DNA of 64,000 bases from Candidatus Latescibacterota bacterium (GCA_036336855.1 JAYZFI010000014.1:44734-108733); one strand, 5' to 3'; shown: positions 5,344 to 42,618, counted from the stretch's first letter. Numbers and translations: made by a program. The notes: generated by a model from the sequence alone, not told the origin.

Positions 5344-5355
5344 GGGGAGAGGAAT

Positions 5356-6592: not shown

Positions 6593-7501
6593 CTACCAGC
6601 CGCGCGTCTGCAGTAGCTGACCCTCGTCCAAGGTCCCCATCTCAATGCCCGGCATGGCCTCGCCGAGTTGCTCAGAGACCTGCACTAGGATCTCGGGATC
6701 ATCGTAGTTCGTCGTCGCTTTGACGATAGCTTCAGCGCGGTTCTTGGGATCGCTGGACTTGAAGATCCCGGAGCCCACGAAGACTGCCTCGGCGCCCAGC
6801 TGCATCATGAGCGACGCGTCAGCGGGAGTGGCGATGCCGCCGGCAGCGAAGTTTGGCACGGGCAGATTGCCGCTCTCGGCGGCCATGCAGATGAGCTCAT
6901 AAGGAGCGCCTAGATCCTTGGCAGCAGTCATCAACTGATCGGATCGGAGCGTCGTAAGGCGCCGCATCTCGTCGGTGACCGCGCGCATGTGACGCACCGC
7001 CTCGACGATGTTGCCGGAACCCGCCTCGCCCTTGGTTCGAATCATGCAGGCGCCTTCACCGATGCGGCGCAGTGCCTCGCCGAGGTTGCGAGCTCCGCAG
7101 ACGAAGGGAACCTCGAAGGCGAACTTGTCGACGTGGAAGTGCTCGTCGGCGGGGGTGAGAACCTCGCTCTCGTCGATGTAGTCGACGCCGAGGGCCTGCA
7201 GCACCTGCGCCTCGGCGAAGTGGCCAATGCGGACCTTGGCCATTACCGGAATCGACACCGCTTCCATGATTTCGCGGATCTTGGTGATGCTGGCCATACG
7301 AGCGACACCGCCCTCTTTACGAATGTCGGCGGGGACACGCTCTAAGGCCATGACCGCGGTTGCACCCGCATCCTCGGCGATCTTGGACTGAGTGGCGTCG
7401 GTGACGTCCATGATGACGCCGCCCTTCAACATCTCCGCCAGGCCGGTCTTGAGACGAATGGTGCCGCTGATGTGCTTGCCGTTGCCCTCTTGGGGATCCA
7501 T
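6593..7501 (-). CDS. pdxS: pyridoxal 5'-phosphate synthase lyase subunit PdxS
   Basis: 302 aa, highly conserved PdxS sequence (GGVIMDV..., [13 protein letters not shown]..., [12 protein letters not shown]..., [15 protein letters not shown]...). Confidence 0.95.
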
Positions 7502-26206: not shown

Positions 26207-28888
26207 ATGAGCAAGGACATGTTTGGCGCCCGCACCGCCCTATACGCGGGTGGCGCCCAGGGTTCGTTCTACCGCATTCAGAAGCTGGAAGAAGATGGGA
26301 TCGCCGAGATCTCTCGCCTGCCCTACTCCATCAAAATCTTGCTGGAGGCGGCGTTGCGGCAGTGCGACAACTTTGAGATCACCAAGGCCGACGTCGAACG
26401 CATCGCGCGGTGGAGCCCGGAAACCGCGGGCAAAGAAGAAATTCCCTTCAAGCCGGCGCGAGTCGTGATGCAGGATTTCACCGGCGTTCCAGCCGTCGTC
26501 GATCTCGCCGCAATGCGGGAAGCGATGATCGAGCTCGGCGGTGCCCCCAATAAGGTGAACCCGTTGATCCCCGTTGACCTCGTCATCGACCATTCCGTGC
26601 AGGTCGATTACTACGGGCTGAAGCAGGCCCTCGATCTCAACGCCGAACGCGAGTTCGAGCGCAATCGCGAACGCTATGAATTTCTGCGCTGGGGCCAGGA
26701 GGCCTTTGACAACTTCAGCGTTGTTCCTCCCGCAACCGGGATCGTGCACCAAGTCAATCTCGAGTACCTCGCATCTGTCGTGCAGGCCAAATCCGGAGAT
26801 GACGAGGACGTCTTCCTCCCTGACAGCCTGGTGGGCACCGACAGCCACACCACCATGATCAATGGTCTTGGCGTGGTCGGATGGGGGGTGGGGGGCATCG
26901 AAGCGGAAGCGGTCATGCTCGGCCAGCCCATCTACATGCTTTTGCCCCACGTGGTTGGCTTCAAGCTTGAAGGTGAGCTACCCACGGGGACCACGGCGAC
27001 CGACCTCGTACTCACCATCACCCAGATGCTGCGCCAGCACGGAGTGGTGGGCAAGTTCGTTGAGTTCTACGGGCCTGGGCTGAGTAAGATGGGTCTCGCC
27101 GACCGCGCCACCATTGCCAACATGGCGCCAGAGTACGGCGCAACCGTGGGTTTGTTTCCCGTGGACGAAGAGACCTTGGCCTACCTGCGGCAGACCGGCC
27201 GCAAGCCCGGTGTCGTCGAGCGGGTACGCACCTTCATGGAGGCGCAGGGCACGTTCTACACCCCGGATTTGCCGGACCCAGTGTTCTCTGAGACCTTGTC
27301 CCTCAACATGTCGACGGTGGTGCCGTCGCTGGCGGGTCCGACCCGACCCCAAGATCGGGTGGCTCTGAGCGACATGAAGAGTTCCTTCAAGACCACACTG
27401 ATCGAAACCCTGGACCGGGACGCCGCGGGCAGGACCGTGTCCGTCGACCTCGGCGACCGCGGTACCACCGACCTTCCGGAAGGCGCAGTGGTGCTGGCGG
27501 CAATCACTTCGTGCACGAACACGAGCAACCCGTCGGTGATGCTGGGAGCGGGTCTGCTGGCGCGCAAAGCTGTGGCCAAGGGGCTGACCGTTCCCGCGTA
27601 CGTGAAAACGAGCTTGGCGCCCGGATCCAAGGTGGTTACCCGCTACTTGGAAGCAGCCAACATGATGGAAGACCTGGAAACCCTCGGCTTTCACACCGTG
27701 GGTTACGGCTGCACCACCTGCATCGGTAACTCCGGACCCCTGCACCAGAATATTGAGAACGCGATTGCCGACGAGGATCTTGTGGTCTGCTCTGTACTGT
27801 CAGGCAACCGCAACTTTGAAGGTCGCGTGCACCCGCAGACGCGGGCGAACTATCTGGCATCGCCGCCGCTGGTGGTCGCCTTCGCATTAGTGGGTCGTGT
27901 TGACATCGACTTTGATAACGAGCCCATCGGGACCGGAAACGACGGAGACGTCTATCTGCGCGACATCTGGCCCACCCCGGACGAAATTCGCGAAGAGATC
28001 GCTCGCTCGGTGCAGCCCAAGATGTTCGAGGAGGAATACGGCAACGTGTTCTCCAGCAACGAGACTTGGAATCTGATCCCGGTACCGGAGGGCGAGCGCT
28101 ATGCTTGGGACGAGGCGAGTACGTATATCCGCCTGCCCTCATTTTTCCAGGAACTCAGTAAGGAGGCCGACAACATTGAGCCCATCACTGGCGCCCGAGT
28201 GCTGGCGCGTCTCGCCGACAGCGTCACCACCGACCACATCTCGCCGGCGGGTTTCATCGCCCCAGGGTCACCCGCCGCGCAGTATTTGGAGAGCAACGGC
28301 GTCGAAAGCGAAGACTGGAACAGTTACGGATCTCGCCGGGGGAACCACGAGGTGATGATGCGCGGAACCTTCGCCAATATCCGCATTCGCAACGAATTGG
28401 TGCCGGGCGTGGAAGGCGGCTACACCCGTCACCTGCCGTCCAATGAGCAGATGACGATCTATGACGCCGCCATGAAGTACGTGGAAGAGGGCGTTCCTAC
28501 CATTGTTCTCGCCGGTGCGGAGTACGGCACGGGCTCGAGTCGCGACTGGGCGGCGAAAGGTCCATACCTGCAAGGTGTGAGGGCGGCGATCGCCGAGAGT
28601 TTCGAGCGGATCCATCGATCCAACCTCATTGGCATGGGGATCCTTCCTCTGCAGTTCGAGAGCGGAGAGACTCGAGACAGCCTCGGTTTGACCGGCGAGG
28701 AACTGTACGATATCGCCATCGTTGAGGATCTCGCTCCGGGGCAGAAGGTGGAAATTGTAGCACGGGGCGGCGACGGCGGCGAAGAGAAGTGCTTCACAGC
28801 GGTATGCCGCATCGACACTCCGGTGGAGCTGGAGTACTACCGCAACGGCGGCATTCTGCAGACCGTGCTGCGACGAATGGCGTCGTAA
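26207..28888 (+). CDS. acnA: aconitate hydratase A
   Basis: 893 aa. Conserved aconitase/IRP family sequence throughout, including Fe-S cluster cysteines ([18 protein letters not shown]) and the swivel domain. Confidence 0.95.
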
Positions 28889-29069: not shown

Positions 29070-30317
29070 ATGAGCTTGAATCACGCGCCTTTCTTGATTC
29101 GGGAAATCCGGAGTCAACGGCTCAACGTGCCCTTCCACCCGCGCAGCGCTCACACCGTGGATGTGCGCGTGCCCACTTGGTCGGTTGTCGATCTCTATCG
29201 TGTGACGCTGAGCTCAGGAGCGGTGGGGATCGGCGAGACCATCGACAACTACACCTTCGGCACGATCAGCTGTGAGCGTGCCCAGGCCCTGGTCGGTCGC
29301 AACGCCATGGAGCTGTTGTGGGACGACAGCTTGGGTGCAGGCGTACAGATGGCGCTGTTCGACGCCGTGGGCAAGACGGCAGGAGTGCCCTGTCATCGTC
29401 TCATGGGAGTGCAGCACCGGGAAACATGCCCGGTTTCGTGGTGGGCTCAGGATATGCCGCCGGAGTTGTGGGCGGCGGAGGCGCGTAGCGCCGTGGAGCA
29501 CGGCTTCACCACTATGAAGGTGAAGGCGCGTCCCTGGTTTGACATTGACGCCCAGCTGGCCGCGGTGTCCGACGCCGTTCCCGACTATTTCCGCCTCGAC
29601 GCTGACTTCAATGGACTGCTGCTCGGAGTCGACCACGCCGCCCACATCATCGGATCCCTGGAAGAGAAGTATCCCGTACTGGCGATTGTGGAATCGCCGA
29701 TTCCGCAGGAAGACGTTGCCGGCAACGCCCTGCTGCGGAGCAAGGTTCGCAGTCCAATCGCCATGCACTTCGGCAATCCGCCCGCGATGACAGCGATTCG
29801 CGGGGGTGTGTGCGACGGCTTCGTAATCAGCGGTGGCGCGGGTCGGGTGATGAGTCAGGGGACGCTGGCCGAACACGCGAGCATGCCCTTCTGGCTGCAA
29901 TTGGTGGGTACGGGGCTCACGACAATCTGGAGTTGCCACCTGGGCTCGGTGCTGAAGCAAGCGCGCTGGCCAGCCATTCCCGGTGTCAACATCTACGAGC
30001 ACACTCTGGTTTCTCTCGAGTTCTCGGGAGGGCATCTACGTGTACCCAAAGGCCCTGGGCTGGGCGTGGAACTCGACGAGGAGGCTATCGCTCGCTTCGA
30101 GGTAGCGGCAGATTTCCAGAAGCAACTGCCAAGAGAGATCCACACGATTCATTGGCCCGACGGCCGCCAGGATCATTACCCGGACGGCAGCTATCGTCAG
30201 GACTTTCTCGAGGGTAAACTACATCCTGGGTTCCTCCCCGGCATCCACACTGATCGAGTCCTCGACAACGGCAGTGCCGAGTTCGACAAGCACTGGCGAG
30301 AGCTGTTCGCTAGGTGA
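29070..30317 (+). CDS. enolase-superfamily enzyme (mandelate racemase / muconate lactonizing enzyme subgroup)
   Basis: 415 aa. KxK (TTMKVK), metal ligands (LDADFNG, ESPIPQED) and capping domain. Stop overlaps the GT-C start. Confidence 0.75.
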   Translation: MSLNHAPFLIREIRSQRLNVPFHPRSAHTVDVRVPTWSVVDLYRVTLSSGAVGIGETIDNYTFGTISCERAQALVGRNAMELLWDDSLGAGVQMALFDAVGKTAGVPCHRLMGVQHRETCPVSWWAQDMPPELWAAEARSAVEHGFTTMKVKARPWFDIDAQLAAVSDAVPDYFRLDADFNGLLLGVDHAAHIIGSLEEKYPVLAIVESPIPQEDVAGNALLRSKVRSPIAMHFGNPPAMTAIRGGVCDGFVISGGAGRVMSQGTLAEHASMPFWLQLVGTGLTTIWSCHLGSVLKQARWPAIPGVNIYEHTLVSLEFSGGHLRVPKGPGLGVELDEEAIARFEVAADFQKQLPREIHTIHWPDGRQDHYPDGSYRQDFLEGKLHPGFLPGIHTDRVLDNGSAEFDKHWRELFAR

Positions 30318-32728
30318 ACCGCATGGCCGTCGGCGGCGTGCTGCTGCTCGCCTTTCTATTGCGAGTCTGGGGCCTGCTGTCGGGGAATCTTGTCCCCCAC
30401 CCCGACGAGATCTTTATGGTCATCTACCCGCTGGGCCTATTCAGCGGCGACCTCAATCCCCACCACTTCCACTACCCCAACTTCCACTTCTACGAGCTCG
30501 GCCTCGTCTACGGTCTGCACTTCATCGTGCAGTACTTATTCGGAGAGGGGCGCTCCCTGATCGATTGGGCGGCACATCACTTCTTCTGGGGTGCCGAGTC
30601 CATGATGGATGTGGCTCGCCTGATCGGAGTTGCTTACTCGATGGGAACGGTGGCATTAGCGGGATTGCTGGCGCGGGAGCTGGCAACCTGGCGGGGCCAT
30701 TCGGGCAGCGCTGAAAGGTGCGACATTGGCCAGACAGCGGTAGCCACCTTCCTGGCGATGCTACTGATGGCAGTGAATGTTCTGCACGTTCGGCAGTCGC
30801 CGATCGCCTCAGTGGACGTGCCTCTTGCGTTCTGGTTCGGCATGGCTACTTGGGGAGGCTTGCGGCTGCTCACCAGGCACGAGGTGCGTGACTATCTGAT
30901 CGCCGGAACACTGGTGGGACTCTCCGCGGCTTGCAAGTACCCCGGCGTGATGTCATGTGCTGCGGTGATGACTGCCCACCTGATTGCAAGGCGACGTGTC
31001 CTGGACAGCCGTCTCTGGCTGGCAGGCCTGGCATCGATCGTCACTTTCTTAGCGCTCTCTCCCTATATCGCTCTCGACTTCGAGACCTTCAGGGCTCATT
31101 TCCTGCATCAGATCGTGCATGTGGAGGAGGGGCGCGACTTCATCCCAGCGCCCTTCTATCACCACCTGTGGATCAGCCTGCGCTTGGGATCAGGCCACCT
31201 GGTCTGGGTGGTTTCCCTTGCCGCATTCGGAGTCGCGCTCTGGGAACGAAGATCGGCTCACCTGGCCGTGGTGGCACCGATCGTCTGCGGCTATGCTATG
31301 GTCAGTTGGGGAGAGCTTGTCTTTTTGCGCTACGCGTTGCCCCTCCTGGCTCTGCAGGCCGCGCTTTCCGCGGATCTGGTGGCTCGTTTTCTCTCGTGGG
31401 TTCCCGTCCGTACCCCGCAGCTGAAGTGGGCCCCTTACGTTTGTGCCCTCTTGCTCACGGCGGAACCGCTGCACGAATCCCTGCACACGGTACGCTTGCA
31501 GTCTATGGCTGACACTCGCCGACAGGCGCGGGCGGATCTGACCGAGATAATTCCCGATGGCAGCGTCTGCTGCAACTTCGGCGGATGGGCGGGCGATGTA
31601 CCGCTCTGGACGTACGAGGAGCTGTGGTGGCGCTCCGCGCGGTTCGTGTCGCGCTTCGGCATGCAACAGCTCGCTGACGCGATTCCGGATTTGACGGCGA
31701 ACCGGCCGGACGAACCCTTCGTAAGCTACGCCCTGCAGGGGCGCAATCGCCATCTCAGCGAAGGATCGATGGAGCTGTTGCACGGTCGCGAATGTCGCTA
31801 CGTGCTGATGCATCGACATTCGCTGGTATATTCCGCCGTCGATTCCGGCTTCGTGCCCCAACTCGAGCGCATCGCCGAACGTTTTGCCGTCTGGGGACCG
31901 CCGATCGCTGAAGATTCTGCCCACTACGATCCAATGGACGGCTACTATTTGCCTTTCGACGGGGGCAGAAGTGTGGCGCGGACGGGGCCGACGATTGAGG
32001 CGTGGAGGGTTCGTGGTTACGAACGACGCTCGAATCGGCCCGACAATCCGTTTTCGCAGGCCTTCGCGGTGTGGGCGGCTGTGCTCATGCGCGAGGGCAG
32101 ACCCAAGGATGCGCGCGTCGCCCTGGAGGCCGCGCGAGTTTTGGAGCCCAAGAGCCCGTACGTTGCCATGTTTCTTTCCGCCTGGGAAGGCGAGAACGGC
32201 GATCTCGCACAAGCGTTGGAGATGGCCCAGTACGTTGCAGAGGGTGCGCCCTGGCTGACTGGGGCTAAGACCCACTACGGGCGCCTGCTCCGTCAAGCCG
32301 GACGGCTCGCCGAGGCGGAACGTCAGTTACTCCAGGCGAGAGGTCACAATCCCATGCAGGGCGAAGTTTGGCACGAGCTGGCAATGTGCTATTTCGAGAG
32401 TGGCGCCTATGCGGAAGCGGCGGAGGCTTGGACGCGAGCCATTGAATTGAGACCGACGCGGGCAGACTACTCCTTCAACCTTGCCTACACCTACCTGGAG
32501 TATCTCGACGCGCCCGAGCGGGCGGTGGCACCGCTTCGCACCGCGATGGCGAAAGGTCACGATGTCACTGACGCGCAGATCAAGCTCGCACAGGCTTATC
32601 TGAAGACAGGAAATCGAGCCGAGGCGATGCGGTGGTACGAGGAAGCCCTCCTGGGCAATCCGGACGAGGAGCAGAAGTCAGACCTTGCAACGGTCCTTTT
32701 GCAGCTAAATAGGGAAAGCTCGTTGTAG
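30314..32728 (+). CDS. ArnT/PMT-like GT-C family membrane glycosyltransferase fused to a C-terminal TPR domain (paralog 1)
   Basis: 804 aa. About 11-13 TM helices. First-loop HPDE motif (LVPHPDEIFMVIYP) as in the ArnT LPDETRY and PMT DE motif. C-terminal third shows TPR repeats (WHELAMCYFESGAYAEAAEAWTRAIEL...). Confidence 0.75.
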   Translation: MNRMAVGGVLLLAFLLRVWGLLSGNLVPHPDEIFMVIYPLGLFSGDLNPHHFHYPNFHFYELGLVYGLHFIVQYLFGEGRSLIDWAAHHFFWGAESMMDVARLIGVAYSMGTVALAGLLARELATWRGHSGSAERCDIGQTAVATFLAMLLMAVNVLHVRQSPIASVDVPLAFWFGMATWGGLRLLTRHEVRDYLIAGTLVGLSAACKYPGVMSCAAVMTAHLIARRRVLDSRLWLAGLASIVTFLALSPYIALDFETFRAHFLHQIVHVEEGRDFIPAPFYHHLWISLRLGSGHLVWVVSLAAFGVALWERRSAHLAVVAPIVCGYAMVSWGELVFLRYALPLLALQAALSADLVARFLSWVPVRTPQLKWAPYVCALLLTAEPLHESLHTVRLQSMADTRRQARADLTEIIPDGSVCCNFGGWAGDVPLWTYEELWWRSARFVSRFGMQQLADAIPDLTANRPDEPFVSYALQGRNRHLSEGSMELLHGRECRYVLMHRHSLVYSAVDSGFVPQLERIAERFAVWGPPIAEDSAHYDPMDGYYLPFDGGRSVARTGPTIEAWRVRGYERRSNRPDNPFSQAFAVWAAVLMREGRPKDARVALEAARVLEPKSPYVAMFLSAWEGENGDLAQALEMAQYVAEGAPWLTGAKTHYGRLLRQAGRLAEAERQLLQARGHNPMQGEVWHELAMCYFESGAYAEAAEAWTRAIELRPTRADYSFNLAYTYLEYLDAPERAVAPLRTAMAKGHDVTDAQIKLAQAYLKTGNRAEAMRWYEEALLGNPDEEQKSDLATVLLQLNRESSL

Positions 32729-32738: not shown

Positions 32739-33275
32739 TCAGCGGACGAGACGAGCAACTTCTTTGAAGGCCGGATCTTTCGCGTCCCGCAGTAATTCGA
32801 AGAGAGCCATTTCCACCGAAGTAATGCTCGTCCCCACTTCCGCCATACGCCGAAGCCCCAACCGGCAGTTGCTCTCCGTTCGCGAAGAGACCGCGTCCGA
32901 GACCACCTCAACGGCAAAACCGGCGGCGAGAAGGTCGCGCGCTGTCTGATACACGCAAACGTGGGATTCGATGCCCACGATGAAGACAGTTTCGGCTTCC
33001 GTCTTTCGCAAGTCTACGAGGAATTGCTCCGCTCCACAGGCACTGAAGCTCGTCTTGGCGATTGGTTGAAGACCTGCCAACAGCTCAGCGATCTCGGGAG
33101 CCGTCGGCCCGAGACCCTGGGGGTATTGCTCCAGCCATAGGGTGGGAATCTCCAAAGCTCGCACCCCGCGCAGGAAGATCTGCAGCTGCCGGTACAGGTT
33201 GTCACGCTCATACATCAGGTCGGCGAGCTTACCCTGCACGTCGATAACGACGACGGTCGACCGGTCCCGTTTCAC
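32739..33275 (-). CDS. isochorismatase-family cysteine hydrolase
   Basis: 178 aa. D-K-C triad context (VVIDVQ, AKTSFSAC, GIESHVCV). Confidence 0.85.
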   Translation of the reverse strand: MKRDRSTVVVIDVQGKLADLMYERDNLYRQLQIFLRGVRALEIPTLWLEQYPQGLGPTAPEIAELLAGLQPIAKTSFSACGAEQFLVDLRKTEAETVFIVGIESHVCVYQTARDLLAAGFAVEVVSDAVSSRTESNCRLGLRRMAEVGTSITSVEMALFELLRDAKDPAFKEVARLVR

Positions 33276-34054
33276 ACGCTCTGCTCACGATGATATCTTC
33301 GCACAGCGCCCGCGCCGCGCAGGCGGATCCGAATCATGTCGATGGGGTCCTGCGCCAGGCAGCGCAGGGGGTTGATCGTCGAACCCGGCGCGTTCTTCCA
33401 GGCAACCAGGACGAAAGCGATGCGCAGGTTCAGGCGGTGGGCGAAGTAGAAAATCTCCACGTCAATGGTACCCCCGTTGATTTCTGACAGAGAGAAGATC
33501 TTGCGGGCCGCATCTCGCGTGAAGACCTTGAACCCGCACTGGCTGTCGACGACCGCTTGGCGGAACACGATGAGGTGGGCGAGCCAGAGAAAGCCCAGGC
33601 CCATGACCCGTCGCGCCCAGCTTTCACGGGTCTCCACGGTTCGCACACCTGCGGCGACGTCGTAGCCCTCGTCAATGCGGGCCAGGAAATTCTCGAGGTT
33701 CTCGATGCGCGTGGAGTGGTCGGCATCCATGAAGATGATGCGCTCGCCGCAGGCTTCGAGGCAGCCCCGGCGCACGGCAGCCCCTTTGCCCTGGTTCTGC
33801 CCCTGTGCCAGCACCCGTAGCGCGGGCCAGTCCGCGGCAATCCGGGAGACTTTTTCTACGGTGTCGTCGCGGCTGCCATCATCGACGACGATGACCTCAC
33901 AGGTGTAGTCCTGACGGTTCAGATACTCCTTGCATTCACATAGGGTGCCCTCAATGCGGTGTGACTCGTTGTACGCCGGGATGACGATGGACAGGTCGAC
34001 GCTGTCGCTCAAGACTCGAACTCCACCGTCATCACCACATTCGAGCACTGCCAA
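33272..34054 (-). CDS. GT2 polyprenyl-phosphate sugar synthase (DPM1/ALG5/ArnC-like)
   Basis: GT-A fold motifs LSIVIPAYNE, VVDDGSRD, QGKGAAV and DADHS (DxD-type). No C-terminal TM helices, so DPM1-like. True start probably at an internal GTG, since the ORF 5' end overlaps the upstream methyltransferase by 46 nt. Confidence 0.85.
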   Translation of the reverse strand: MAVLECGDDGGVRVLSDSVDLSIVIPAYNESHRIEGTLCECKEYLNRQDYTCEVIVVDDGSRDDTVEKVSRIAADWPALRVLAQGQNQGKGAAVRRGCLEACGERIIFMDADHSTRIENLENFLARIDEGYDVAAGVRTVETRESWARRVMGLGFLWLAHLIVFRQAVVDSQCGFKVFTRDAARKIFSLSEINGGTIDVEIFYFAHRLNLRIAFVLVAWKNAPGSTINPLRCLAQDPIDMIRIRLRGAGAVRRYHREQSV

Positions 34055-34764
34055 CGAAAGAACGGCACCCGCTCAATGATGTGATTGAATAGAATGAGAG
34101 GCTGTAGAAGAGGTTTGGGGGTGCCTCCGGGCAAGGGAAAGAGGAAAGGCCGAATCCGGAAGTCGCGCAGGGGGCCGGCTTTGGCAAAGAAGCGCCGGTA
34201 CTGGCGGGGAGTGTAAGAGCGTTCCCCTGTGGCACGATGCCCCTCGGTCTGCTCCATGAGCTTGCGACCGACGCTCAACCCGTTGGATTCGGTCAGGAAC
34301 AGTCGACCCCGAGAGACGCGGGCCATTTCTCGCGCCATAAGAAAGGGATCGGACACGTGGTGGAGGACATCGTAGGAGATGACGGCATCGAAACTGCGGT
34401 CACGAAACGGAAGGTGCAGGGCATCGGAGGAAAGGCTTGGCAGCCCCACGGATCGTAACCATCGAGCCCCTTCCGGAAAGATCTCCGATGTGGTATACCG
34501 AGAGACGCACTCCGGATCACGATCGAGGACGCGTCGCGGAACCTCGCCGTTCCCCGCACCTACCTCGAGAAAAGTGAGGGCACGGTCTTCACCGAAAGTC
34601 TCGAAGAACAGATCGACGTAGCGGGGAATGGCAAAGGCTGTGGAGAGGTCACCCAACAGCCGCGTCCGCCAGCTTTCGTCTTGGGAGTGAAAGCGGGTCC
34701 AATCTACCTCTGCGTCGGACTGGGGCCTGTTATCGCTCACAACCAACCCTGCTGACGGGCCCAC
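34009..34764 (-). CDS. class I SAM-dependent methyltransferase
   Basis: 251 aa. Motif I LEVGAGNG and post-I/II acidic residues (AVISYDVLHHV). Confidence 0.8.
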   Translation of the reverse strand: MGPSAGLVVSDNRPQSDAEVDWTRFHSQDESWRTRLLGDLSTAFAIPRYVDLFFETFGEDRALTFLEVGAGNGEVPRRVLDRDPECVSRYTTSEIFPEGARWLRSVGLPSLSSDALHLPFRDRSFDAVISYDVLHHVSDPFLMAREMARVSRGRLFLTESNGLSVGRKLMEQTEGHRATGERSYTPRQYRRFFAKAGPLRDFRIRPFLFPLPGGTPKPLLQPLILFNHIIERVPFFRWQCSNVVMTVEFES

Positions 34765-35753
34765 TGCACGGCAGTGCGCATTCCCGCAGAGATGCCCGTC
34801 TGTGGGTCAAACCCCAATTCCCGGCGGGCTCGATCGTTACGGCACCCCATATGCCGAGTGCCCTCACCGGCGACATGGATCATCATGGAGTACAGGCCGA
34901 ACGCGGAGAGGCCCCGATCGAGCCAGTGACAGAGCTGTGCACCAAAACCCGGCAGGTAACGGGGCCGTACGTGAGCACCTTGGGCCTCACCCATTTCCCG
35001 GAGCACTTGAGCCCAGTCATAGATCTCGTTGTCAGCGATGAAGTAGGTGCCGCCGGCGGCAACGGGAAGCACCAAGGCACGACCCACGGCGTCGATGAGA
35101 TCGTCGATATAGATCATGCTCACCCGATTGTGTCCATCGCCTAGAATGGGAGGCCGCCCTCCGCCGGCAAGTTGGTAGGCCCGTAGTTGGCGGCGCGGGA
35201 AGAACGGACCATAGAAGGTCGTCGGCCGCAGCACTACTCCCTCTGTGGAGGAGCCCTCCAGACGCTCCCATAGAGCTCGCTCACCCCGCAGCTTGCTGCG
35301 ACCGTAGTGGCTCCTGGGCTTGGGTGGGTCTGTCTCTCGCATATCCAAGGTGGCGGAACCAAAGCCGGCGGCAGCATTGCTGCTGATGAAGACCAGTCGC
35401 TGAACGCCTGCCTGCACCGCAAGGTCGGAGAGATTGCGACAGGCATCACCATTGATCTCGTAGAGCTTCCGAATTCGTCGGGGATGAATGATGCCGCCGG
35501 CGTGGAGGACAAGCTGAGCACCCGACACAGCCTTTTCGATCACCGCTACATCGCGGAGGTCACCCTCGACAATCTCATCTACAATCGGCAGACGAGAATG
35601 CTTGGAGTAACCCGGAGCAACGAGTGCGCGCCAGCGATAGCGCGATAGCTCCTTCGACCAGTTGCCGGCTGTGCTTCCTGCTTGGAGCAGGCGCAGCAGG
35701 TGTTCGGTTAACCAACCCGGATAGCCGGTCATCAGCGCCAAGGGCGCCGTCAC
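34737..35753 (-). CDS. NAD-dependent epimerase/dehydratase (extended SDR)
   Basis: 338 aa. N-terminal Rossmann and a YxxxK-type region. Typical nucleotide-sugar epimerase/dehydratase length. Confidence 0.8.
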   Translation of the reverse strand: MTAPLALMTGYPGWLTEHLLRLLQAGSTAGNWSKELSRYRWRALVAPGYSKHSRLPIVDEIVEGDLRDVAVIEKAVSGAQLVLHAGGIIHPRRIRKLYEINGDACRNLSDLAVQAGVQRLVFISSNAAAGFGSATLDMRETDPPKPRSHYGRSKLRGERALWERLEGSSTEGVVLRPTTFYGPFFPRRQLRAYQLAGGGRPPILGDGHNRVSMIYIDDLIDAVGRALVLPVAAGGTYFIADNEIYDWAQVLREMGEAQGAHVRPRYLPGFGAQLCHWLDRGLSAFGLYSMMIHVAGEGTRHMGCRNDRARRELGFDPQTGISAGMRTAVQWARQQGWL

Positions 35754-35786: not shown

Positions 35787-36932
35787 CTATATATAACCGG
35801 TAGAGCCATCCGGGCGAACCGGACAGGTGCGTTGCCAATGAATGTACTCGTTGTCGGTGATCGCATCCTCGTTGATTTCGATGCCGAGACCTGGTCGATC
35901 GACTCGGAGCTCTAGGTAGCCGTCTTTGGGCATATAGGGCTCATCAACCCAGTTGTTCCATTCGGTGTCGGTCGGTAGGAGGTATTCGAGGATCTTGAAA
36001 TTGCAGGTCGATGCGGCGAAGTGGACGTTCACTGCAGTCGCAAGGGGACCCATGGGGTTATGAGGAGCGACACTGACGTAATGGGCTTCCGCGATGTGGG
36101 CGATCTTCTTCATCTCCAGCAGACCGCCGCAGATACAGACGTCAGGTTGTACAATGTCGGCTCCATTGCTAGCGATGAGATTGAGAAACTCGAAGCGGCC
36201 ATACAGACTCTCGCCCGTGGCCAGGGGGACGCGCATCTGCTCACGCAGTCGCGACCACTGCGGAATGTGCTCAGGTCGTAGCGGCTCCTCGTAAAACAAT
36301 GGATCGTAGGGCGCCAAGGCATCAGACAGCTGGAGGGCGCGAATGGGTTCAAAGATCTTGGCGTGGGGGTCGAAGGCAAATTCCCACTCTCCTGGAGTGT
36401 TGAGACGCAGCTCTTCGAAGTATTTCGCCGCCGCGGAGCAAACACGACCCCAGCGATCGGAGTCCGGATCGAGCTGGTATGGGCTTGTCTTGAAAGCGGT
36501 GAAGCCCCAATCCTCGTGGAGCCGACGCGCCTGATCTGCTGCCTCTTTGCCGTCGCGCCCCCCGATGCCGCGGTAAACGCGAATGCGATCCCGGGCATTC
36601 CCGCCCAGCAACATGTACACCGGGAGTCCCGCCGCTTTGCCGGTGATGTCCCACAGGGCGTGATCGAGAGCGGATATGGCGGGCAGCCCCACGCCTCCAG
36701 GCGGGAAGCGAAACTGCTGATGCAGCTTCATCATGATGTATTCGATGCGCCGAGGATCCTCACCTTGAATCATCTCGAAGAGGTAGTCGGCGATGGGCTC
36801 CACTGAAAGGTCAGGACCAGTGGAGTAGGCCTCGCCCCAACCATGGATGCCCTCATCAGTCTCAACCTTCAGAAGGGCCCGGGGGCGATTGCCGAAGCGA
36901 GCGACGAACGTTTTAATCGCGGTAATCTTCAT
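35787..36932 (-). CDS. enolase-superfamily sugar-acid dehydratase (D-galactonate/D-mannonate dehydratase-like)
   Basis: Start trimmed to MKITAIKTFVARFG, 5 nt after the GH88 stop. Barrel metal ligands and conserved His (...WGEAYS..., ...LLEMKKIAHIAEAHY...). Confidence 0.8.
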   Translation of the reverse strand: MKITAIKTFVARFGNRPRALLKVETDEGIHGWGEAYSTGPDLSVEPIADYLFEMIQGEDPRRIEYIMMKLHQQFRFPPGGVGLPAISALDHALWDITGKAAGLPVYMLLGGNARDRIRVYRGIGGRDGKEAADQARRLHEDWGFTAFKTSPYQLDPDSDRWGRVCSAAAKYFEELRLNTPGEWEFAFDPHAKIFEPIRALQLSDALAPYDPLFYEEPLRPEHIPQWSRLREQMRVPLATGESLYGRFEFLNLIASNGADIVQPDVCICGGLLEMKKIAHIAEAHYVSVAPHNPMGPLATAVNVHFAASTCNFKILEYLLPTDTEWNNWVDEPYMPKDGYLELRVDRPGLGIEINEDAITDNEYIHWQRTCPVRPDGSTGYI

Positions 36933-36937
36933 GATCG

Positions 36938-38311
36938 TTAACCAAAGAATGTCGGATACGGTTCGCCCAAGGCCTCGCGGCGGATCAGCAGAACCAGCTC
37001 CATGGTGTGATAGTCGCCCCACATGGCGGACTCTCCGCAAGGGATCTTGCGGCCGCGGGGGGTGTGATCCCAACCGTTGGGACGGTGGTAGATGGCATGC
37101 AGGGTGAGCCCCTGATGGCGCGCTGTCGTAGAAAGGTAGGGCTCTGTGAGCAGCGCGGCGGCAATGGTGAAGGCTGCGGCGCGGTAGCGACGACCCCGGG
37201 TGAGGTCACCTTTATCAACAAAGTAGTTGCCCAGTCTCAAGTAACCTTGGGCGCAGATAGCGGCGGCCGACGAGTCTAGGGGTTCGACGTCATTGTAGGG
37301 ATCAGACGTAGACCGCGAATAATCGCCAAAAGACGCGACGCTCGGTGCGCCCGTGTCCCAAAAGGGGACGCCGTCGGCAAAGCTGTGATGAATGTGGAAG
37401 TCGGCGGTGGCAACGGCGGCTTTCTCCATCATGGCCAGGAGTGGGAGGCGCTTTGCGTGGGGTTCGAGATCGGAGCTCTTCAGTTTTCGGATGAATTCCA
37501 GCTGCTCGGCGTAGCCGCATAGAATCCAGCTCAACCCCCTTGTCCAAGTGGAGAACGGCGAGTAGCCCTGTTGGGTGCTGGGGCAGCGATAGTTGCCGTC
37601 GTTGGCATTGAAGATGGATTCATGGACGACGCGGCCGGGCCGGTCGTAAGCATCGCGACCTTCTCCGTAGTAGACGTTGAAATTCGCTGTCGTCGTGGTG
37701 TGCTCGATGGCGCGACCGAGCAACGAGATCGGTTGATCTCCTTCGCCCATGAGCACGTGGCCGAGCTGGTGGGCAAGGTACAGGATGCGCAGAGTGCGAA
37801 TGGTATCGGAAAACAGGGAATGGGACCCGTTGAAGGAGTGGATGAAACCGCCTCCAGAGGCGATCTGTGTCCAGCGCGCAGCCTGAATCGCACCCGACAG
37901 TTTGATTGCCAGCTCGTAGAAGTCAAGCTCGGTTCGGTCCCCTGTGATACGCCCCTCGCGTATGAGACGGCGGAGGTTGCCGTACGTGGAAAGGTTATTG
38001 AAGCCGTGGTCGTGAACTCCGACGTGGGAAACATGTGGAGCCATGTTCCGAATGGTGTGACGGCGTCCGAGCTCGAGAAAGCTATCGTCGTCCGTCATGT
38101 CGTACTGGAGAATTGCGCATCCGTACTGAAACCCCTGAGTCCACTCCGTCCAGCCCCGGGTAGTGTAACGACCGTTGGTGGTGAAGACCGGAGTGCCGTA
38201 CTGCGGATTCCAAGTCGATTCCAGTGAACGGATCTTCTTGCCCGAGAGCTTGAGAAACCGATCGGTGGCGGGCAGGAGTTTCTTCGCAGTCTGGCGTTTG
38301 TCGATTTTCAC
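36938..38311 (-). CDS. glycoside hydrolase family 88 unsaturated glucuronyl/uronyl hydrolase
   Basis: 457 aa. Matches remembered Bacillus UGL signatures: HDHGF (UGL HDIGF catalytic Asp), STWTRGLSWILCGYA (UGL STWTRGQAWGIYGFA) and WGDYHTMELV (UGL WGDYYYLEAL). Confidence 0.65.
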   Translation of the reverse strand: MKIDKRQTAKKLLPATDRFLKLSGKKIRSLESTWNPQYGTPVFTTNGRYTTRGWTEWTQGFQYGCAILQYDMTDDDSFLELGRRHTIRNMAPHVSHVGVHDHGFNNLSTYGNLRRLIREGRITGDRTELDFYELAIKLSGAIQAARWTQIASGGGFIHSFNGSHSLFSDTIRTLRILYLAHQLGHVLMGEGDQPISLLGRAIEHTTTTANFNVYYGEGRDAYDRPGRVVHESIFNANDGNYRCPSTQQGYSPFSTWTRGLSWILCGYAEQLEFIRKLKSSDLEPHAKRLPLLAMMEKAAVATADFHIHHSFADGVPFWDTGAPSVASFGDYSRSTSDPYNDVEPLDSSAAAICAQGYLRLGNYFVDKGDLTRGRRYRAAAFTIAAALLTEPYLSTTARHQGLTLHAIYHRPNGWDHTPRGRKIPCGESAMWGDYHTMELVLLIRREALGEPYPTFFG

Positions 38312-38324
38312 TGTGCTCTCTTTG

Positions 38325-39650
38325 CTATTGATAGGACACGTTATAGATGGGCTTAATCCCTTCTGTCAACCACTGCGAGTGGGATTCCCTCATTCGGCGT
38401 AGCTGATCTGGGTAGACCTTTGCGACGTTGCGCTGTTCGCCGGAATCTTCGAAGAGATCGCTCAGGTGAACACCTTCTGGTGTAGCGGAAAGTTTCCACC
38501 TGCCCTGACGCACCGCCCAGTAAGAGCCCAGCATCCAGTGAAGAGCTTGGTGCGGACTGGGCGCGTCATCGATCAGCACGCCAGTGAGGTTTTTGCCGTC
38601 CACTGTTCCGGCCTGAATTCCGCAGAGTTGGCAGAGAGTAGGAAACCAGTCGAGGCCACTGGAGATCTGTTGGCGAATCTTGCCCGCTGGGAATCGCGCC
38701 GGCCACGAGGCGATGCAAGGCACGCGAATACCCCCCTCCCAAAGTGTGCCCTTGTGGCCGCGATGAGGACCTGACCACCCTCCTCCACTCCCAGCTGCTT
38801 CCTCCTCTGAATGGCCGTGATCGCTGAGGAAGATGACGATAGTCTTTTCGGTAAGAGACGCTTGGTCCACTGCATCCAGAATTTGGCCAATCTTGTCGTC
38901 CATGGACTGCACTGTAGCTGCGTAGGCGCGTCGATTCGCGGATGACAGGGACAGATTCTCATCCACAAAACGTTTCTCGGGCTGAAGGGGGTAGTGAGGC
39001 ATGTTGAAAGAGGCACAGAGAAAGAAGGGACGAGATCTGTTTCTCTCAACGAACTGACCGCACTCCCGCGCCAGGATGTCGGGGAAGAACACCCCGTCCT
39101 CACGATAAGGCTGCCGTTTCTTCCACAGCGCGTGCCTCGGAGCCCCTCCCCAGTAGTTGTAGTGCGAATAGTTGTCGATGGCCCCGACCAGGTGTCCGAG
39201 GAATTCATCGAAGCCCTGCGACAACGGATCCCAGTCGTCAAATCCACCGAGATGCCACTTGCCGAAAAACCCAGTGCGGTAGCCCCCAGCGCGAAAGGTT
39301 TCCGCGATGGTGGTCTCGTCAGGGGCAATTCCCTTGCCGGGAACGAGGCAGCGCTGGAAGTGGCGGCCCGTCATCAGGCCCGCCCTCGAGGCTGTGCACA
39401 GAGGGGCGGGCGCGTAGAAGCTGGTTAAGCGTACTCCGCGGCGCGCCAAATCGTCCAAATGCGGTGTCTTGAGATCGTCGGCCCCGAAGCAGCCGACGTC
39501 TCTACTTCCCAGATCATCTGCCACAATCAGCACGACGTTGGGCCGGACCGGGGCCTGCGCCCGTACGGCCGGAACCGCGAGGGCTGTCGCCCCCCAAGCC
39601 AATCTCTGAAGAGCTTGGCGCCTCGAGAGCACACGTGTGGATCCCGCCAT
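38325..39650 (-). CDS. formylglycine-dependent sulfatase, Tat-exported
   Basis: 441 aa. Twin-arginine signal (SRRQALQRLAWGATALAVPAVRAQA). Sulfatase N-terminus VVLIVADDLGSRD, FGly motif CTASRAGLMTGR (a C-x-A-x-R variant), GKWHLG. Confidence 0.9.
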   Translation of the reverse strand: MAGSTRVLSRRQALQRLAWGATALAVPAVRAQAPVRPNVVLIVADDLGSRDVGCFGADDLKTPHLDDLARRGVRLTSFYAPAPLCTASRAGLMTGRHFQRCLVPGKGIAPDETTIAETFRAGGYRTGFFGKWHLGGFDDWDPLSQGFDEFLGHLVGAIDNYSHYNYWGGAPRHALWKKRQPYREDGVFFPDILARECGQFVERNRSRPFFLCASFNMPHYPLQPEKRFVDENLSLSSANRRAYAATVQSMDDKIGQILDAVDQASLTEKTIVIFLSDHGHSEEEAAGSGGGWSGPHRGHKGTLWEGGIRVPCIASWPARFPAGKIRQQISSGLDWFPTLCQLCGIQAGTVDGKNLTGVLIDDAPSPHQALHWMLGSYWAVRQGRWKLSATPEGVHLSDLFEDSGEQRNVAKVYPDQLRRMRESHSQWLTEGIKPIYNVSYQ

Positions 39651-39653
39651 AGC

Positions 39654-40985
39654 CTACTGGTAGTCGACGGTATACACCGGCGTCATTCCCTTTGCAAGCC
39701 AACGCTGGTGGAGAGACTCGAGTCGCTCCACGACGTCGGGTCGACTGTTGAGCTGGTTGGTGCCTTCGCCCGGATCGGCTTGCAGGTCGCTGAGTATCTG
39801 TCCCGCGGGTTCGGTTATGAGCTTCCATCGTCCTTGGAGGACAGCCCAATGCGAGCCCACCATCCAATGCATGCTGGCGTGGGGACTGTCGGCATTAGCG
39901 GCAATGACGTCGGCAAGGTCACGGCCGTCGAAGGAAAACGAGGAAAGGGAGATGCCACAGTAGCCTGCCAGGGTCGGCAGGAGGTCCATACTTGATGCTA
40001 TCTGTTGGCGTACCTCACCACGCGGAAAGGTTCCCGGCCAGGAGATGAGGGCGGGAACCCGCAGGCCTCCCTCGAACAAAGTTTTCTTGTGGCCGCGAAA
40101 CACACCTGTCCACCCCCCGCCACTCTCGGCTGCCTGCTCTACGGAGTGGCCGTTGTCGCTTAGCAGAACAACGATAGTGTCACGCTCTATGCTTAGCTCT
40201 TGAACACGGTTGACGATCTGCCCCACTTTTTCGTCCAGGGAAGCGAGGACAGCTGCATAGCGTCTGCGGGCCGGATCCTGGATGTGATCGAAGGCTCCTG
40301 AGAACTCGGACTCCACCTGCAAGGGGTAGTGGGGCATGTTGAAAGAGGCACAGACAAAAAACGGCCGACCGACAGATTCGCCAATGAAGCGTATGGTCTC
40401 CTGGGTGACGATGTCCGGGAAGAACTTACCGGGGCGGTGCAGAGGTTGCTCGTTGTACCAGAGGTCGTGCTCCGGTGTTCCCGACCAATAGTGGTAGTGG
40501 GAGTAGTTGTCGATGGCACCTGTCTTGTGACCAATGAACTCGTCGAAGCCACGGTCGGTGGGAATCATCCCGGGCCTGCCTCCCAGGTGCCACTTGCCGA
40601 ACATCCCGGTTCGGTAGCCGGCGTCTCGAAAGACCTCCGCCATGGTCACGAATCTAGGATCGATTCCGTGCTCGGTGAGCACGCGCTGGAAGTAATGACC
40701 AGTAAATAGCGACGCCCTCGATGCCGAGCACAGGGGAGCGGCTACGTAGAACTGAGTGAAGCGCACCCCCGCACTCGCGAGTGCATCCATGTTGGGAGTA
40801 CGCAGGTCAGCGGCTCCGTAGCAACCCATGTCTAGCGTTCCCTGATCATCCGTAATGATCAGCAGCACGTTTGGGGACGGAGTTGCCATCGCTCCGGGCG
40901 CGATTCCACTGAAAGCAGCAGCAGCGCCTCCGCCGACTAGCGTGCGGAGGGCCTGACGGCGCGTGATCTCGGCTGAACCCGGCAA
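39654..40985 (-). CDS. formylglycine-dependent sulfatase, Tat-exported (tandem paralog)
   Basis: 443 aa, TTG start. Tat signal (TRRQALRTL...AMA). CSASRASLFTGH and GKWHLGG. C-terminus collinear with the neighbouring sulfatase. Confidence 0.9.
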   Translation of the reverse strand: MPGSAEITRRQALRTLVGGGAAAAFSGIAPGAMATPSPNVLLIITDDQGTLDMGCYGAADLRTPNMDALASAGVRFTQFYVAAPLCSASRASLFTGHYFQRVLTEHGIDPRFVTMAEVFRDAGYRTGMFGKWHLGGRPGMIPTDRGFDEFIGHKTGAIDNYSHYHYWSGTPEHDLWYNEQPLHRPGKFFPDIVTQETIRFIGESVGRPFFVCASFNMPHYPLQVESEFSGAFDHIQDPARRRYAAVLASLDEKVGQIVNRVQELSIERDTIVVLLSDNGHSVEQAAESGGGWTGVFRGHKKTLFEGGLRVPALISWPGTFPRGEVRQQIASSMDLLPTLAGYCGISLSSFSFDGRDLADVIAANADSPHASMHWMVGSHWAVLQGRWKLITEPAGQILSDLQADPGEGTNQLNSRPDVVERLESLHQRWLAKGMTPVYTVDYQ

Positions 40986-41115
40986 TTGACTTCGTTAGGA
41001 GGGAATTAGAAGGGCGGCAAAGATACGCGACCCTGCTCTCGGGTCAATCAGCCTGGGTACAACAACAGTGACGCCCTAGGTTCTTCCACTTCACCGAGCC
41101 CGTACGGAGAGGAAC
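40986..41115. promoter_or_regulatory. divergent intergenic control region between the two operon arms of the sulfatase/GT-C locus
   Basis: 130-bp gap between divergently oriented sulfatase genes. Contains direct repeat TAGGAGGG-aat-TAGAAGGG and the palindrome CAATTG. GGAGAGG SD sits before the plus-strand ATG at 41116. Confidence 0.3.
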
Positions 41116-42618
41116 ATGACGACGGCCAATAGGCCCAACCTCATTTTTATCATCACCGACCAACAGCGTGCAGATACGATCCGCGCCTGGGGCCATTCCC
41201 ACATGGTGACACCGGCCATGGACAAGTTGTGCAAGGATGGGCGCTCTTTCCGGCAGGCGTTTTGCCCGGGAGCGACCTGCGTCGCCTCCCGCGCTGCTAT
41301 CTTCACCGGCATGTACCCGCACACGACGGGAGTGTACAGCTTCGATGCCTGGGCGGGGCATCGAAGCTGGGTGGAAGATCTCGCCGACGCCGGCTATCGC
41401 TGCATTAACATTGGCAAGATGCACATCACTCCACAGAGCGAGAACGGAGGATTCCATGAGCGGATCATCGTCGAAAATCCGACCAATAAGGAATTGATCA
41501 ACGGTGGCGCCGACGACGATTGGGGGCGTTACCTGACTCATCACGGTGAGTCCAGACCCAACGACCGCCACGAAACTGATTCCGACTGGATCGACAAGGT
41601 GCAAGGCGTGCCGTGGCATCTGGAGGAGCGTTTCCACAGCGATGTGTTCATTGGCGACGCGGCAGTTTCGTGGATCCGTAGTCATCGGGGCGACGACCCG
41701 CTGTTTCTCCAGATCGGGTTCGCCGGACCCCACGAGCCCTGGGACCCACTACCGCGACATCTCGAGCTCTACCACGGAGTGCAGCTACCTGATCCGGTCT
41801 TTCGGGAGAGCGAGCTCGACAGCAAGCCGCCGCAGCACCAAGCGCATCACCGCACTCATGCCGAGGCCGATCACGAATCCCGGATCGACGTCCAGAATAC
41901 GTCCCCGGAGCAGATCGATCACATGCGTCGCCACTATTATGCGAAGATCACCACCGTCGATGAGCAGATCGGCCGAGTGTTGGAAGCACTGGACGAGCGC
42001 GGCTGGAGGGACAACAGCCTCCTCGTGTTCTGCTCTGATCACGGCGAGCTGCTGGGAGATCACAACCTCGCGTACAAATGGCTGATGTACGATGCCATCA
42101 CTCGAGTTCCCCTCGTCGTTTGTGATCGTCGCGAGGGTGCGGATTCGCAAGGCGGCGGCGTCTGCGACGAACTGGTCTCCCTGATCGATCTGGGACCGAC
42201 CTTTCTCGAAGCAGCGGGGATCGACCGGCCGGATTATCTGGAGGGGTGTTCTCTGCTGCCCTGCTCGAACAGCGGTAGATACTCCCGAGATCGCGTGTAT
42301 GCGGAAGACAACTACCAAATCATGATGCGCACCCACGATCTCAAGATCGTGTATTACATCGGCCAGGAGCTTGGCGAGCTCTACAACCTGAGTGAGGATC
42401 CAGACGAGCTTTGGAATCTTTGGGAAGACCCGGCGCATCGAGAGACGCGCGATCGCCTGCTACGGGAGTTGCTCGACTGGTTGGCATCGAGCACATACTG
42501 GAACGCAGGTTATCGCCGCGACCGCAGCGCGAACTACCGGATGCGCTGGCCCGCCCCGGATGACCCCTACCTCCATGGGCGCTACTCGCGACCACGGAAG
42601 AGGCAGGCTGATCTGTGA
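41116..42618 (+). CDS. formylglycine-dependent sulfatase, no signal peptide (predicted cytoplasmic)
   Basis: 500 aa. Starts directly with the sulfatase fold (NLIFIITDQQRAD). FGly motif CVASRAAIFTGM, GKMHI. No N-terminal hydrophobic segment. Stop overlaps the start of the next gene. Confidence 0.9.
   Translation: MTTANRPNLIFIITDQQRADTIRAWGHSHMVTPAMDKLCKDGRSFRQAFCPGATCVASRAAIFTGMYPHTTGVYSFDAWAGHRSWVEDLADAGYRCINIGKMHITPQSENGGFHERIIVENPTNKELINGGADDDWGRYLTHHGESRPNDRHETDSDWIDKVQGVPWHLEERFHSDVFIGDAAVSWIRSHRGDDPLFLQIGFAGPHEPWDPLPRHLELYHGVQLPDPVFRESELDSKPPQHQAHHRTHAEADHESRIDVQNTSPEQIDHMRRHYYAKITTVDEQIGRVLEALDERGWRDNSLLVFCSDHGELLGDHNLAYKWLMYDAITRVPLVVCDRREGADSQGGGVCDELVSLIDLGPTFLEAAGIDRPDYLEGCSLLPCSNSGRYSRDRVYAEDNYQIMMRTHDLKIVYYIGQELGELYNLSEDPDELWNLWEDPAHRETRDRLLRELLDWLASSTYWNAGYRRDRSANYRMRWPAPDDPYLHGRYSRPRKRQADL

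Follow-up and report, generated by a model that had tools for sequence, protein, structure and literature searches.

A three-gene short-chain dehydrogenase, methyltransferase and glycosyltransferase cassette with comparative links to PMT_2/TPR glycosyltransferases in Candidatus Latescibacterota

Four overlapping minus-strand genes occupy positions 32739 to 35753 of a 64-kb window (the whole stretch of DNA that was analysed) of a Candidatus Latescibacterota metagenome-assembled genome (MAG). An earlier note on this DNA had read the four as one operon, built on the logic of the Arn (arnBCADTEF) pathway, that would pass a tailored sugar through a lipid carrier to TPR-bearing glycosyltransferases of the GT-C type. 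Here, we report that they are probably better read as a three-gene cassette, made up of a short-chain dehydrogenase/reductase (SDR), a class I S-adenosylmethionine (SAM) methyltransferase (MT) and a family 2 glycosyltransferase (GT2) without transmembrane (TM) helices, followed by a backbone gene of the locus that encodes an isochorismatase-family cysteine hydrolase (ISO). The cassette recurs in four other phyla and, judging from sequence comparison, we lean slightly towards its attaching a sugar, modified and methylated, to a lipid carrier in the membrane for use by periplasmic GT-C enzymes.

The Pfam matches of all four open reading frames (ORFs) exceed gathering scores. Together with the GT-C gene that converges on them, the genes are as follows.

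34737-35753, minus strand: extended SDR, first gene of the cassette (Pfam Epimerase, 90.9 bits)
34009-34740, minus strand: class I SAM methyltransferase of the type here called MTa (Methyltransf_11, 48.7 bits)
33272-34012, minus strand: TM-less GT2 (Glycos_transf_2, 107 bits)
32739-33275, minus strand: ISO, start GTG at 33275 (Isochorismatase, 94.8 bits)
30314-32728, plus strand: GT-C with a PMT_2 domain (33.8 bits; cut-off, 26.1) and a C-terminal TPR region (TPR families above cut-offs)

The layout described by the earlier note, with four overlapping genes and a convergent GT-C gene 10 nucleotides (nt) away, was confirmed in its ORFs, domains and coordinates. When the likely starts are used, the SDR/MT, MT/GT2 and GT2/ISO junctions are three 4-nt start/stop overlaps (GTGA, TTGA and GTGA), and a 10-nt gap separates the GT-C stop (32728) from the ISO stop (32739). 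The starts of the MT (GTG at 34740, overlapping the SDR stop) and of the GT2 (TTG at 34012) were taken from sequence reading and from the lengths of homologues (242 to 247 and 236 to 240 amino acids [aa], respectively); the mechanical ORFs are longer and reach 34764 and 34054. The SDR and ISO proteins are 100% identical to NCBI entries MEE2657483.1 and MEE2657480.1. The SDR-MT-GT2-ISO order with a convergent GT-C gene was repeated in several other assemblies, so that the arrangement is not a product of chance. The closest GT2 loci come from MAGs of Latescibacterota, some of which bear the label Gemmatimonadetes.

The best PDB sequence matches of the GT2 were the Dol-P-Man synthase (DPMS) of P. 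furiosus, GtrB and ArnC, and its homologues carry the JGI name dolichyl-phosphate beta-glucosyltransferase (ALG5-type). An AlphaFold2 (AF2) model built from 60 homologues (pLDDT, 93.3) has a GT-A fold; its top 25 Foldseek matches in the PDB were all GtrB, ArnC or DPMS (TMq, 0.62 to 0.80; most, 0.72 to 0.80), and the next class (WrtF, chondroitin polymerase and GpgS) followed at TMq 0.5 to 0.66. The predicted type, a polyprenyl-phosphate sugar synthase (GtrB/ArnC/DPM1/ALG5-like), is well supported by these structural neighbours, in line with what the earlier note had proposed, and clustering with processive synthases was not seen. The protein carries DAD at residues 96 to 98 and the motif VVDSQCGFK; both aspartates of DAD are family-invariant, as are six residues of VVDSQCGFK (D, S, Q, C, F and K). 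Also invariant is R124, which aligns with R122 of GtrB, one of the undecaprenyl-phosphate (UndP-phosphate) ligands of that enzyme (PMC12698845). The AF2 model has a hydrophobic juxtamembrane-type helix at residues 132 to 148 and a basic C-terminal helix at 215 to 245; hydropathy and the model agree with the note that C-terminal TM helices are missing, and neither places a TM segment beyond the GT-A domain. Since human DPM1 is likewise TM-less, the missing helices do not exclude polyprenyl-phosphate glycosyltransferase activity. No NCBIfam equivalog cut-off was reached (best PgfS, 82 bits against 500; ArnC NF007986, 54.3 against 529), and the GT2 is for this reason placed in a separate clade of polyprenyl-phosphate-glycosyltransferase-like enzymes. 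A chondroitin synthase ranked first when the family profile was searched against PDB sequences; this was an artefact of summing two matches to the N-terminal nucleotide-binding domain, and structural comparison was therefore preferred for assigning the class.

To survey the cassette elsewhere, window proteins were searched with tblastn against 60 fetched loci (loci are cited by number, with the prefix L). The SDR, one or two class I MTs and the GT2 are adjacent in Latescibacterota and in four other phyla, in which the loci are as follows.

Acidobacteriota: L017, L019, L020, L022, L023 and L025
Verrucomicrobiota: L021, L024, L027, L028, L031, L032, L034 and L038
Planctomycetota: L029
Eremiobacterota: L030

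Methyltransferase content differs among loci: the window has MTa only, most loci have MTa together with a second type (MTb), and the complete Latescibacterota chromosome OZ244235.1 (L014) has MTb only. Orthologues of the MT (44 to 73% identity) adjoin the GT2 in five phyla, and its similarity to PDB and NCBIfam entries is of a generic methyltransferase kind only. The earlier note had put the MT in the place of the ArnA formyltransferase; nothing ties it to a transient protecting-group role, and we do not retain that assignment. In L038, a single ORF (4726-6759) holds a PMT_2-type membrane domain (28 bits) in frame with the C-terminal two thirds of the GT2, from the DAD motif onwards and without the nucleotide-binding N-terminus, which may be a real deletion/fusion or a misassembly.

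The SDR has a non-canonical glycine motif (TGYPGWLT) as well as SSNAAAG and YGRSK. Its orthologues across phyla share TGxPGWL(T/A/S) in place of the TGxxGxxG dinucleotide-binding motif, with SSNAAxG and YGxSK, and those of Latescibacterota have an insertion of about 8 to 10 residues after the first helix. Searched against the PDB, the family profile found nucleoside diphosphate (NDP)-sugar enzymes first (DesIV at 2.6e-30, MoeE5, UDP-GlcNAc and UDP-GlcA 4-epimerases and GalE). The top Foldseek match of the AF2 model (pLDDT, 96.9) was Gox2253; NDP-sugar epimerases, decarboxylases and dehydratases came next in one continuous series (TMq, 0.72 to 0.78), and the model lies structurally no nearer to decarboxylases than to 4-epimerases. 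Where dehydratases and decarboxylases have acidic residues after the catalytic Ser, this protein has SSNAAAG; because these residues are absent, a 4,6-dehydratase or an ArnA/UXS-type decarboxylase is unlikely. One part of the earlier assignment stood, namely the nucleotide-sugar neighbourhood, seen in both profile and Foldseek searches with no sign of a non-sugar clade, and the other part, the ArnA-like label, gained no specific support from the SSNAAAG motif or from Foldseek. Our best guess is that the SDR is a putative NDP-sugar epimerase or ketoreductase.

A variant of the lipid-carrier reading would have the SDR, too, act on the lipid-linked sugar instead of the nucleotide sugar, paralleling DprE1/DprE2 on decaprenyl-phosphoribose. 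The SDR reaches no NCBIfam equivalog cut-off, and its best scores come from HpnA (73 bits against 368), OleD and SdmB-type SDRs, which act on lipidic substrates; Gox2253, the only full-length PDB sequence match as well as the first Foldseek match, is only a 'putative oxidoreductase' in the PDB, which assigns it no sugar function; and the TGxPGWL motif is unusual, all of which would suit such a role. The HpnA, OleD and SdmB scores are, however, far below cut-offs, the profile and Foldseek neighbours are overwhelmingly NDP-sugar enzymes, hydropathy predicts no membrane segment in the SDR, and the Planctomycetota GT2 orthologue pairs instead with a clear GDP-sugar SDR (Fcl-like, 293 bits), so that we rate the variant as quite improbable. 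A hopanoid/sterol-type role, to which the same top NCBIfam families could point, was rejected as the leading interpretation on the low scores and on the NDP-sugar character of the profile and fold neighbours.

The convergent GT-C (30314-32728) has about seven hydropathy-predicted TM segments and an HPDE motif after TM1. Among Latescibacterota-type ISO loci having enough flanking sequence, a convergent gene of this type (GTC1) was present in all 7 that bear the cassette and in 1 of the 14 that do not (Fisher p = 7e-5, uncorrected for phylogeny). Beyond that phylum, two PMT_2/TMTC-type proteins adjoin the cassette in L020 of the Acidobacteriota (36.9 and 41.8 bits) and one does so in L038 of the Verrucomicrobiota (28 bits); in L027, also of the Verrucomicrobiota, a protein with TMTC_DUF1736 (27.2 bits) and TPR follows directly after the SDR, and a sub-threshold PMT_2 protein lies near a Terriglobia cassette (L061). 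An all-against-all BLAST found the cassette-adjacent membrane proteins of other phyla to be heterogeneous, and hhalign gave no match between the PMT_2 GT-C alignment and either the 688-aa membrane protein of Opitutaceae or the 729-aa one of L062. Because these neighbours are heterogeneous and some are without GT-C signal, no universal GT-C partner is claimed. The co-variation in Latescibacterota and the recurrence in other phyla lend comparative support to a putative functional link between the cassette and PMT_2/TPR GT-C enzymes, and with it to the earlier prediction of a tailored sugar delivered by a lipid carrier to TPR-bearing GT-C proteins.

It is unlikely, in our view, that the cassette does not feed the neighbouring GT-C and provides instead a polyprenyl-phosphate sugar for decoration of lipopolysaccharide or capsule, or a cytoplasmic methylated glycoside, soluble or lipidic. 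A GT2 without TM helices would fit that alternative, and GpgS-type soluble GT-A enzymes are among its more distant structural neighbours (TMq, 0.61 to 0.66). PMT_2 genes are also abundant (three in the window), the adjacent polytopic proteins of other phyla are in many cases heterogeneous and in some without GT-C signal, and the cassette of Opitutaceae accompanies MBOAT and AlgX-like polysaccharide O-acetylation genes. Against it, the structural neighbours of the GT2 are clearly polyprenyl-phosphate glycosyltransferases (TMq 0.62 to 0.80, mostly 0.72 to 0.80, against 0.61 or less for the class that follows), the protein has both the hydrophobic helix 132-148 and the conserved arginine aligned to the UndP-phosphate ligand, co-variation of the cassette with the GT-C is strong in Latescibacterota, and PMT_2/TMTC-type genes repeatedly adjoin the cassette in two other phyla. 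In the Opitutaceae isolate (L021:4813-9246), the MBOAT gene, the AlgX-like SGNH gene and the gene of the 688-aa polytopic protein, which has no Pfam match, precede the cassette in the same operon, and these predicted functions point to O-acetylation of an exported polysaccharide there.

Two further PMT_2 genes lie 10 kb from the cassette and are candidate further users of the same lipid-linked donor.

42615-45056, plus strand: PMT_2 GT-C paralogue
45053-47545, plus strand: PMT_2 GT-C paralogue, in tandem with the preceding gene (PMT_2 scores of the pair, 32.5 and 41.0 bits)

Their products have 7 to 9 predicted TM segments and are 31% identical to each other. The two genes are chained through 4-nt overlaps with a sulfatase gene (41116-42618), and three GT-C genes lie inside 17 kb of the window. 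At the other end, a 4-nt overlap joins the start of the convergent GT-C gene to the stop of an enolase-superfamily gene (29070-30317, with a weak match to its N-terminal domain), which has an aconitase gene upstream (26207-28888). The order aconitase, enolase, GT-C is repeated in related loci, and this partnership is odd operon company for a periplasm-facing glycosyltransferase.

The last of the four genes, ISO, is translationally coupled to the GT2 and belongs over its full length to the ISOC1/2 ('MAR1') family (PDB 2b34, 3e-27 over residues 6 to 177; 8rkz, 8e-26). It matches 2b34 of C. elegans end to end, the Cys of ESHVCV is conserved, and the Asp-Lys-Cys triad is intact, its columns being kept in 10 of 10 aligned homologues. 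The searchable literature gave no established substrate for the ISOC1/2 family and nothing relevant on PDB 8RKZ. Gene neighbourhoods of ISO were compared in look-ups and in 80 metagenomic loci. About 10 distinct loci have the GT2 as the upstream neighbour of ISO, 10 others have the enolase-family gene there directly, and 1 has the GH88-like gene; among more than 45 more distant homologues, the upstream gene is unrelated. A neighbour-joining tree of ISO interleaves the proteins encoded beside the GT2 with those encoded beside the enolase-family gene. The cassettes of Acidobacteriota, Verrucomicrobiota, Planctomycetota and Eremiobacterota lack ISO, as do some of those of Latescibacterota, and only in a subset of Latescibacterota does it stand beside the GT2. 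We therefore take ISO as probably a backbone gene, because it keeps its place after the enolase-family gene in loci without the cassette and does not accompany the cassettes found elsewhere; here it is co-transcribed with the cassette, yet it is no obligate member of the pathway.

These findings bear on the Arn analogy, under which the MT, corresponding to the ArnA formyltransferase, would mask the sugar, the GT2 would load it onto lipid, ISO, corresponding to ArnD, would unmask it, and the GT-C would transfer it. The unmasking step has a precedent in ArnD and NaxD, which deacylate lipid-linked sugars in Arn-like systems; the order GT2 then ISO, with its 4-nt overlap, is kept in about 10 distinct loci, and the intact Asp-Lys-Cys triad is typical of the amidohydrolases of the superfamily. 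The analogy nevertheless appears very unlikely. ISO is absent from the cassette in four other phyla and part of Latescibacterota, stays beside the enolase without the cassette, with both states interleaved in its tree, and has more than 45 further homologues with unrelated neighbours. There is no amino sugar to mask, as no aminotransferase was found among the scanned window ORFs (at least 150 aa), a point on which the earlier note was right. Methylation offers a cysteine hydrolase no protecting group that it could remove, and the SDR is without decarboxylase residues. The same ORFs yielded no formyltransferase or polysaccharide-deacetylase Pfam domain. The placing of ISO in the position of ArnD does not hold for an ISOC/MAR1 protein that persists without the cassette and is absent from the cassettes of other phyla; and the Arn-specific mapping as a whole was abandoned, with no aminotransferase, formyltransferase, ArnD-type deacetylase or small flippase in the window and an SDR that is not decarboxylase-like.

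The cassette and ISO end a longer co-directional, tight string of genes (sulfatase, sulfatase, GH88-like, enolase-family, SDR, MT, GT2, ISO; 40985 to 32739), whose upstream part has intergenic gaps of 3, 13, 5 and 33 nt and consists of the following genes.

39654-40985, minus strand: sulfatase (Pfam/NCBIfam)
38325-39650, minus strand: sulfatase (Pfam/NCBIfam)
36938-38311, minus strand: GH88-like protein (PDB GH88 relatives, 9e-11 for 1vd5)
35787-36932, minus strand: enolase-superfamily dehydratase, start ATG at 36932 (Pfam/NCBIfam)

A promoter and terminator scan of 32 to 42 kb performed no better than on shuffled sequence, and the operon limits accordingly rest on gene spacing. The GH88-like, enolase-family and ISO genes are a conserved trio that is kept in loci without the cassette. 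On the simplest reading, these three form the Latescibacterota backbone, with the convergent enolase-family and aconitase genes opposite, and the cassette (between the enolase gene and ISO) and the GT-C (convergent on ISO) were gained or lost on either side of ISO. The GH88-like gene, which directly precedes the SDR in L014, was considered as a cassette member and rejected, because loci without the cassette retain it alongside the enolase gene and ISO. A DDE_Tnp_1_4 transposase gene lies exactly at the enolase/ISO junction of a cassette-less locus (L067:5137-5886), and another (L002:867-2167) adjoins PMT_2 genes in a 6.7-Mb Latescibacterota chromosome; these positions fit the view of the junction as a hotspot of gain and loss. 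The surroundings (35787-42618) resemble a set for use of sulfated-uronate polysaccharide, with three sulfatases, the GH88-like protein (cytoplasmic, with no signal peptide) and a galactonate-dehydratase-like enolase (278 bits against a cut-off of 311).

Returning to the lipid-carrier reading, which has slightly better than even standing with us, the pathway may run as follows. The SDR, with its NDP-sugar-enzyme fold and catalytic S-Y-K, would interconvert a nucleotide sugar by oxidation and reduction at C4, as an epimerase or ketoreductase. The GT2, as a monotopic enzyme at the cytoplasmic face of the membrane, would then move the sugar to polyprenyl phosphate, an activity suggested by its fold, its DxD motif and one arginine. 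The MT may O-methylate the sugar, probably in the cytoplasm once the lipid carries it, as the conserved co-occurrence of the MT with the other two genes suggests. A flippase encoded outside the window would carry the product to the periplasmic face, where the TPR-bearing PMT_2 GT-C, and possibly both paralogues 10 kb away, would pass the sugar on to an acceptor in the periplasm, either a protein or a glycan. The only flippase-like gene noticed in the window is of the Wzx type (7608-9053; Polysacc_synt_3, 165 bits), 24 kb from the cassette, and no evidence was found that ties it to the cassette.

Gene context gives a hint of the donor. Outside Latescibacterota, the cassette is set among genes for a GHMP kinase (best HddA, 160 bits), a SIS_2 protein (best GmhA), a GmhB-type HAD-IIIA phosphatase, an NTP-transferase and a transaldolase. 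This set, which resembles the GDP-D-glycero-D-manno-heptose pathway, surrounds the cassette, in the order MT-GT2-MT-SDR, in 10 loci (L020, L021, L022, L024, L025, L029 to L032 and L062; for example, L021:12441-16104), and it also surrounds a GT2 orthologue that is without MT and SDR (L035). Because such genes, or the Fcl-like SDR of Planctomycetota, adjoin the cassette in other phyla, our best guess for the donor class is a putative GDP-linked, mannose-configured hexose or heptose. A fuller scheme can be drawn, which we hold to be rather improbable: the cassette would make a polyprenyl-phosphate heptose, or some other mannose-configured sugar derived from GDP, in methylated form, and GT-C enzymes of the TPR-bearing PMT_2/TMTC-like kind would O-glycosylate periplasmic or surface proteins with it, as a bacterial equivalent of the eukaryotic route from DPM1 to TMTC; in Latescibacterota, ISO could add facultative editing of the lipid-linked sugar.

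Several observations count against the lipid-carrier reading or the donor guess. On the side of the acceptor enzyme, one cassette-less locus (L072) keeps the GT-C, the many PMT_2 paralogues of Latescibacterota could make part of the adjacency mere background, and at several loci of other phyla the adjoining polytopic membrane proteins have no detectable similarity to GT-C. No ORF of 80 to 220 aa with at least three hydrophobic segments, as expected for a small flippase of the GtrA/GtcA or ArnE/F type, was present in the window. The 4-nt ISO/GT2 overlap is kept wherever both genes are present, which leaves room for a facultative role of ISO in the pathway. As to the donor, the heptose-pathway matches are far under NCBIfam equivalog cut-offs, transaldolase excepted, the scanned ORFs of the 64-kb window include no genes for nucleotide-sugar (heptose-type) synthesis, and the ALG5-type JGI name points to UDP-glucose instead.

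In multi-component transmembrane glycosylation, the polyprenyl-phosphate monosaccharide that a GT-C uses outside the cytoplasm is the product of a GtrB-type GT2 (PMC8035078, PMC11127046), and this is the closest known kind of system. The GtrA-GtrB-Gtr* and CsbB-GtcA-YfhO systems resemble the locus in that the GT2 fold is nearest to GtrB and a GT-C gene is adjacent and co-varying. They differ from it in that here the GT2 lacks the two TM helices, the window has no GtrA-type flippase gene, the GT2 has an SDR and one or two methyltransferases as constant partners across phyla, and the GT-C is of the PMT_2 type with TPR. The Arn system shares a nucleotide-sugar SDR step, an ArnC-like GT2 (ArnC is among the top structural matches) and an ArnT-like GT-C. 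Unlike it, the present locus has no ArnB, formyltransferase, ArnD-type deacetylase or ArnE/F, and its SDR is without decarboxylase residues; the GT2 shares its fold with ArnC and is not orthologous to it, the GT-C bears TPR, and ISO is unrelated to ArnD and dispensable. TMTC proteins are O-mannosyltransferases on the eukaryotic route from DPM1 to TMTC (PMC7801869). The DPM1/ALG5 to PMT/TMTC route is matched here by a TM-less, DPM1-like catalytic subunit, the ALG5-type JGI name and partners with a PMT_2/TMTC domain and TPR; the present system differs in being bacterial, in having SDR and MT partners that would imply a tailored rather than a plain sugar, and in that no DPM2/3-like anchor was identified. 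Mycobacterial PpgS/Rv3634c/Rv3779 and Francisella FlmF/NaxD/FlmK are comparable systems. The Pgf system of S. mutans combines the GT2 PgfS with the epimerase PgfE and the membrane proteins PgfM1 and PgfM2 (PMC12041528). Pgf, PpgS and Flm all pair an SDR epimerase gene with a GtrB-type GT2 and GT-C-type membrane glycosyltransferases, as here; they differ in having no methyltransferase, whereas the present GT2 is TM-less and the SDR is of a distinct TGxPGWL clade.

What is new, in comparison, is the fixed partnership of the SDR and MT with a TM-less GT2, the distinctive SDR clade, the spread across phyla and the heptose-like context; the searchable literature gave no description of the cassette, of a polyprenyl-phosphate heptose or of bacterial ALG5-like clusters. 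The locus is a familiar lipid-carrier strategy in a form without earlier description, and not a rebuilt Arn pathway. It also illustrates that an isochorismatase gene is not to be counted as a pathway member from adjacency alone. Latescibacterota, Planctomycetota, Verrucomicrobiota and Acidobacteriota are rich in TPR-bearing PMT_2/TMTC-like GT-C proteins, and a compact, portable cassette travels with these proteins. With its three soluble or peripheral proteins, the cassette is a concrete way into the donors of these GT-C enzymes. If the heptose link is true, the product would be a new class of polyprenyl-phosphate sugar, and the bacterial enzymes would connect to the eukaryotic TMTC O-mannosylation system.

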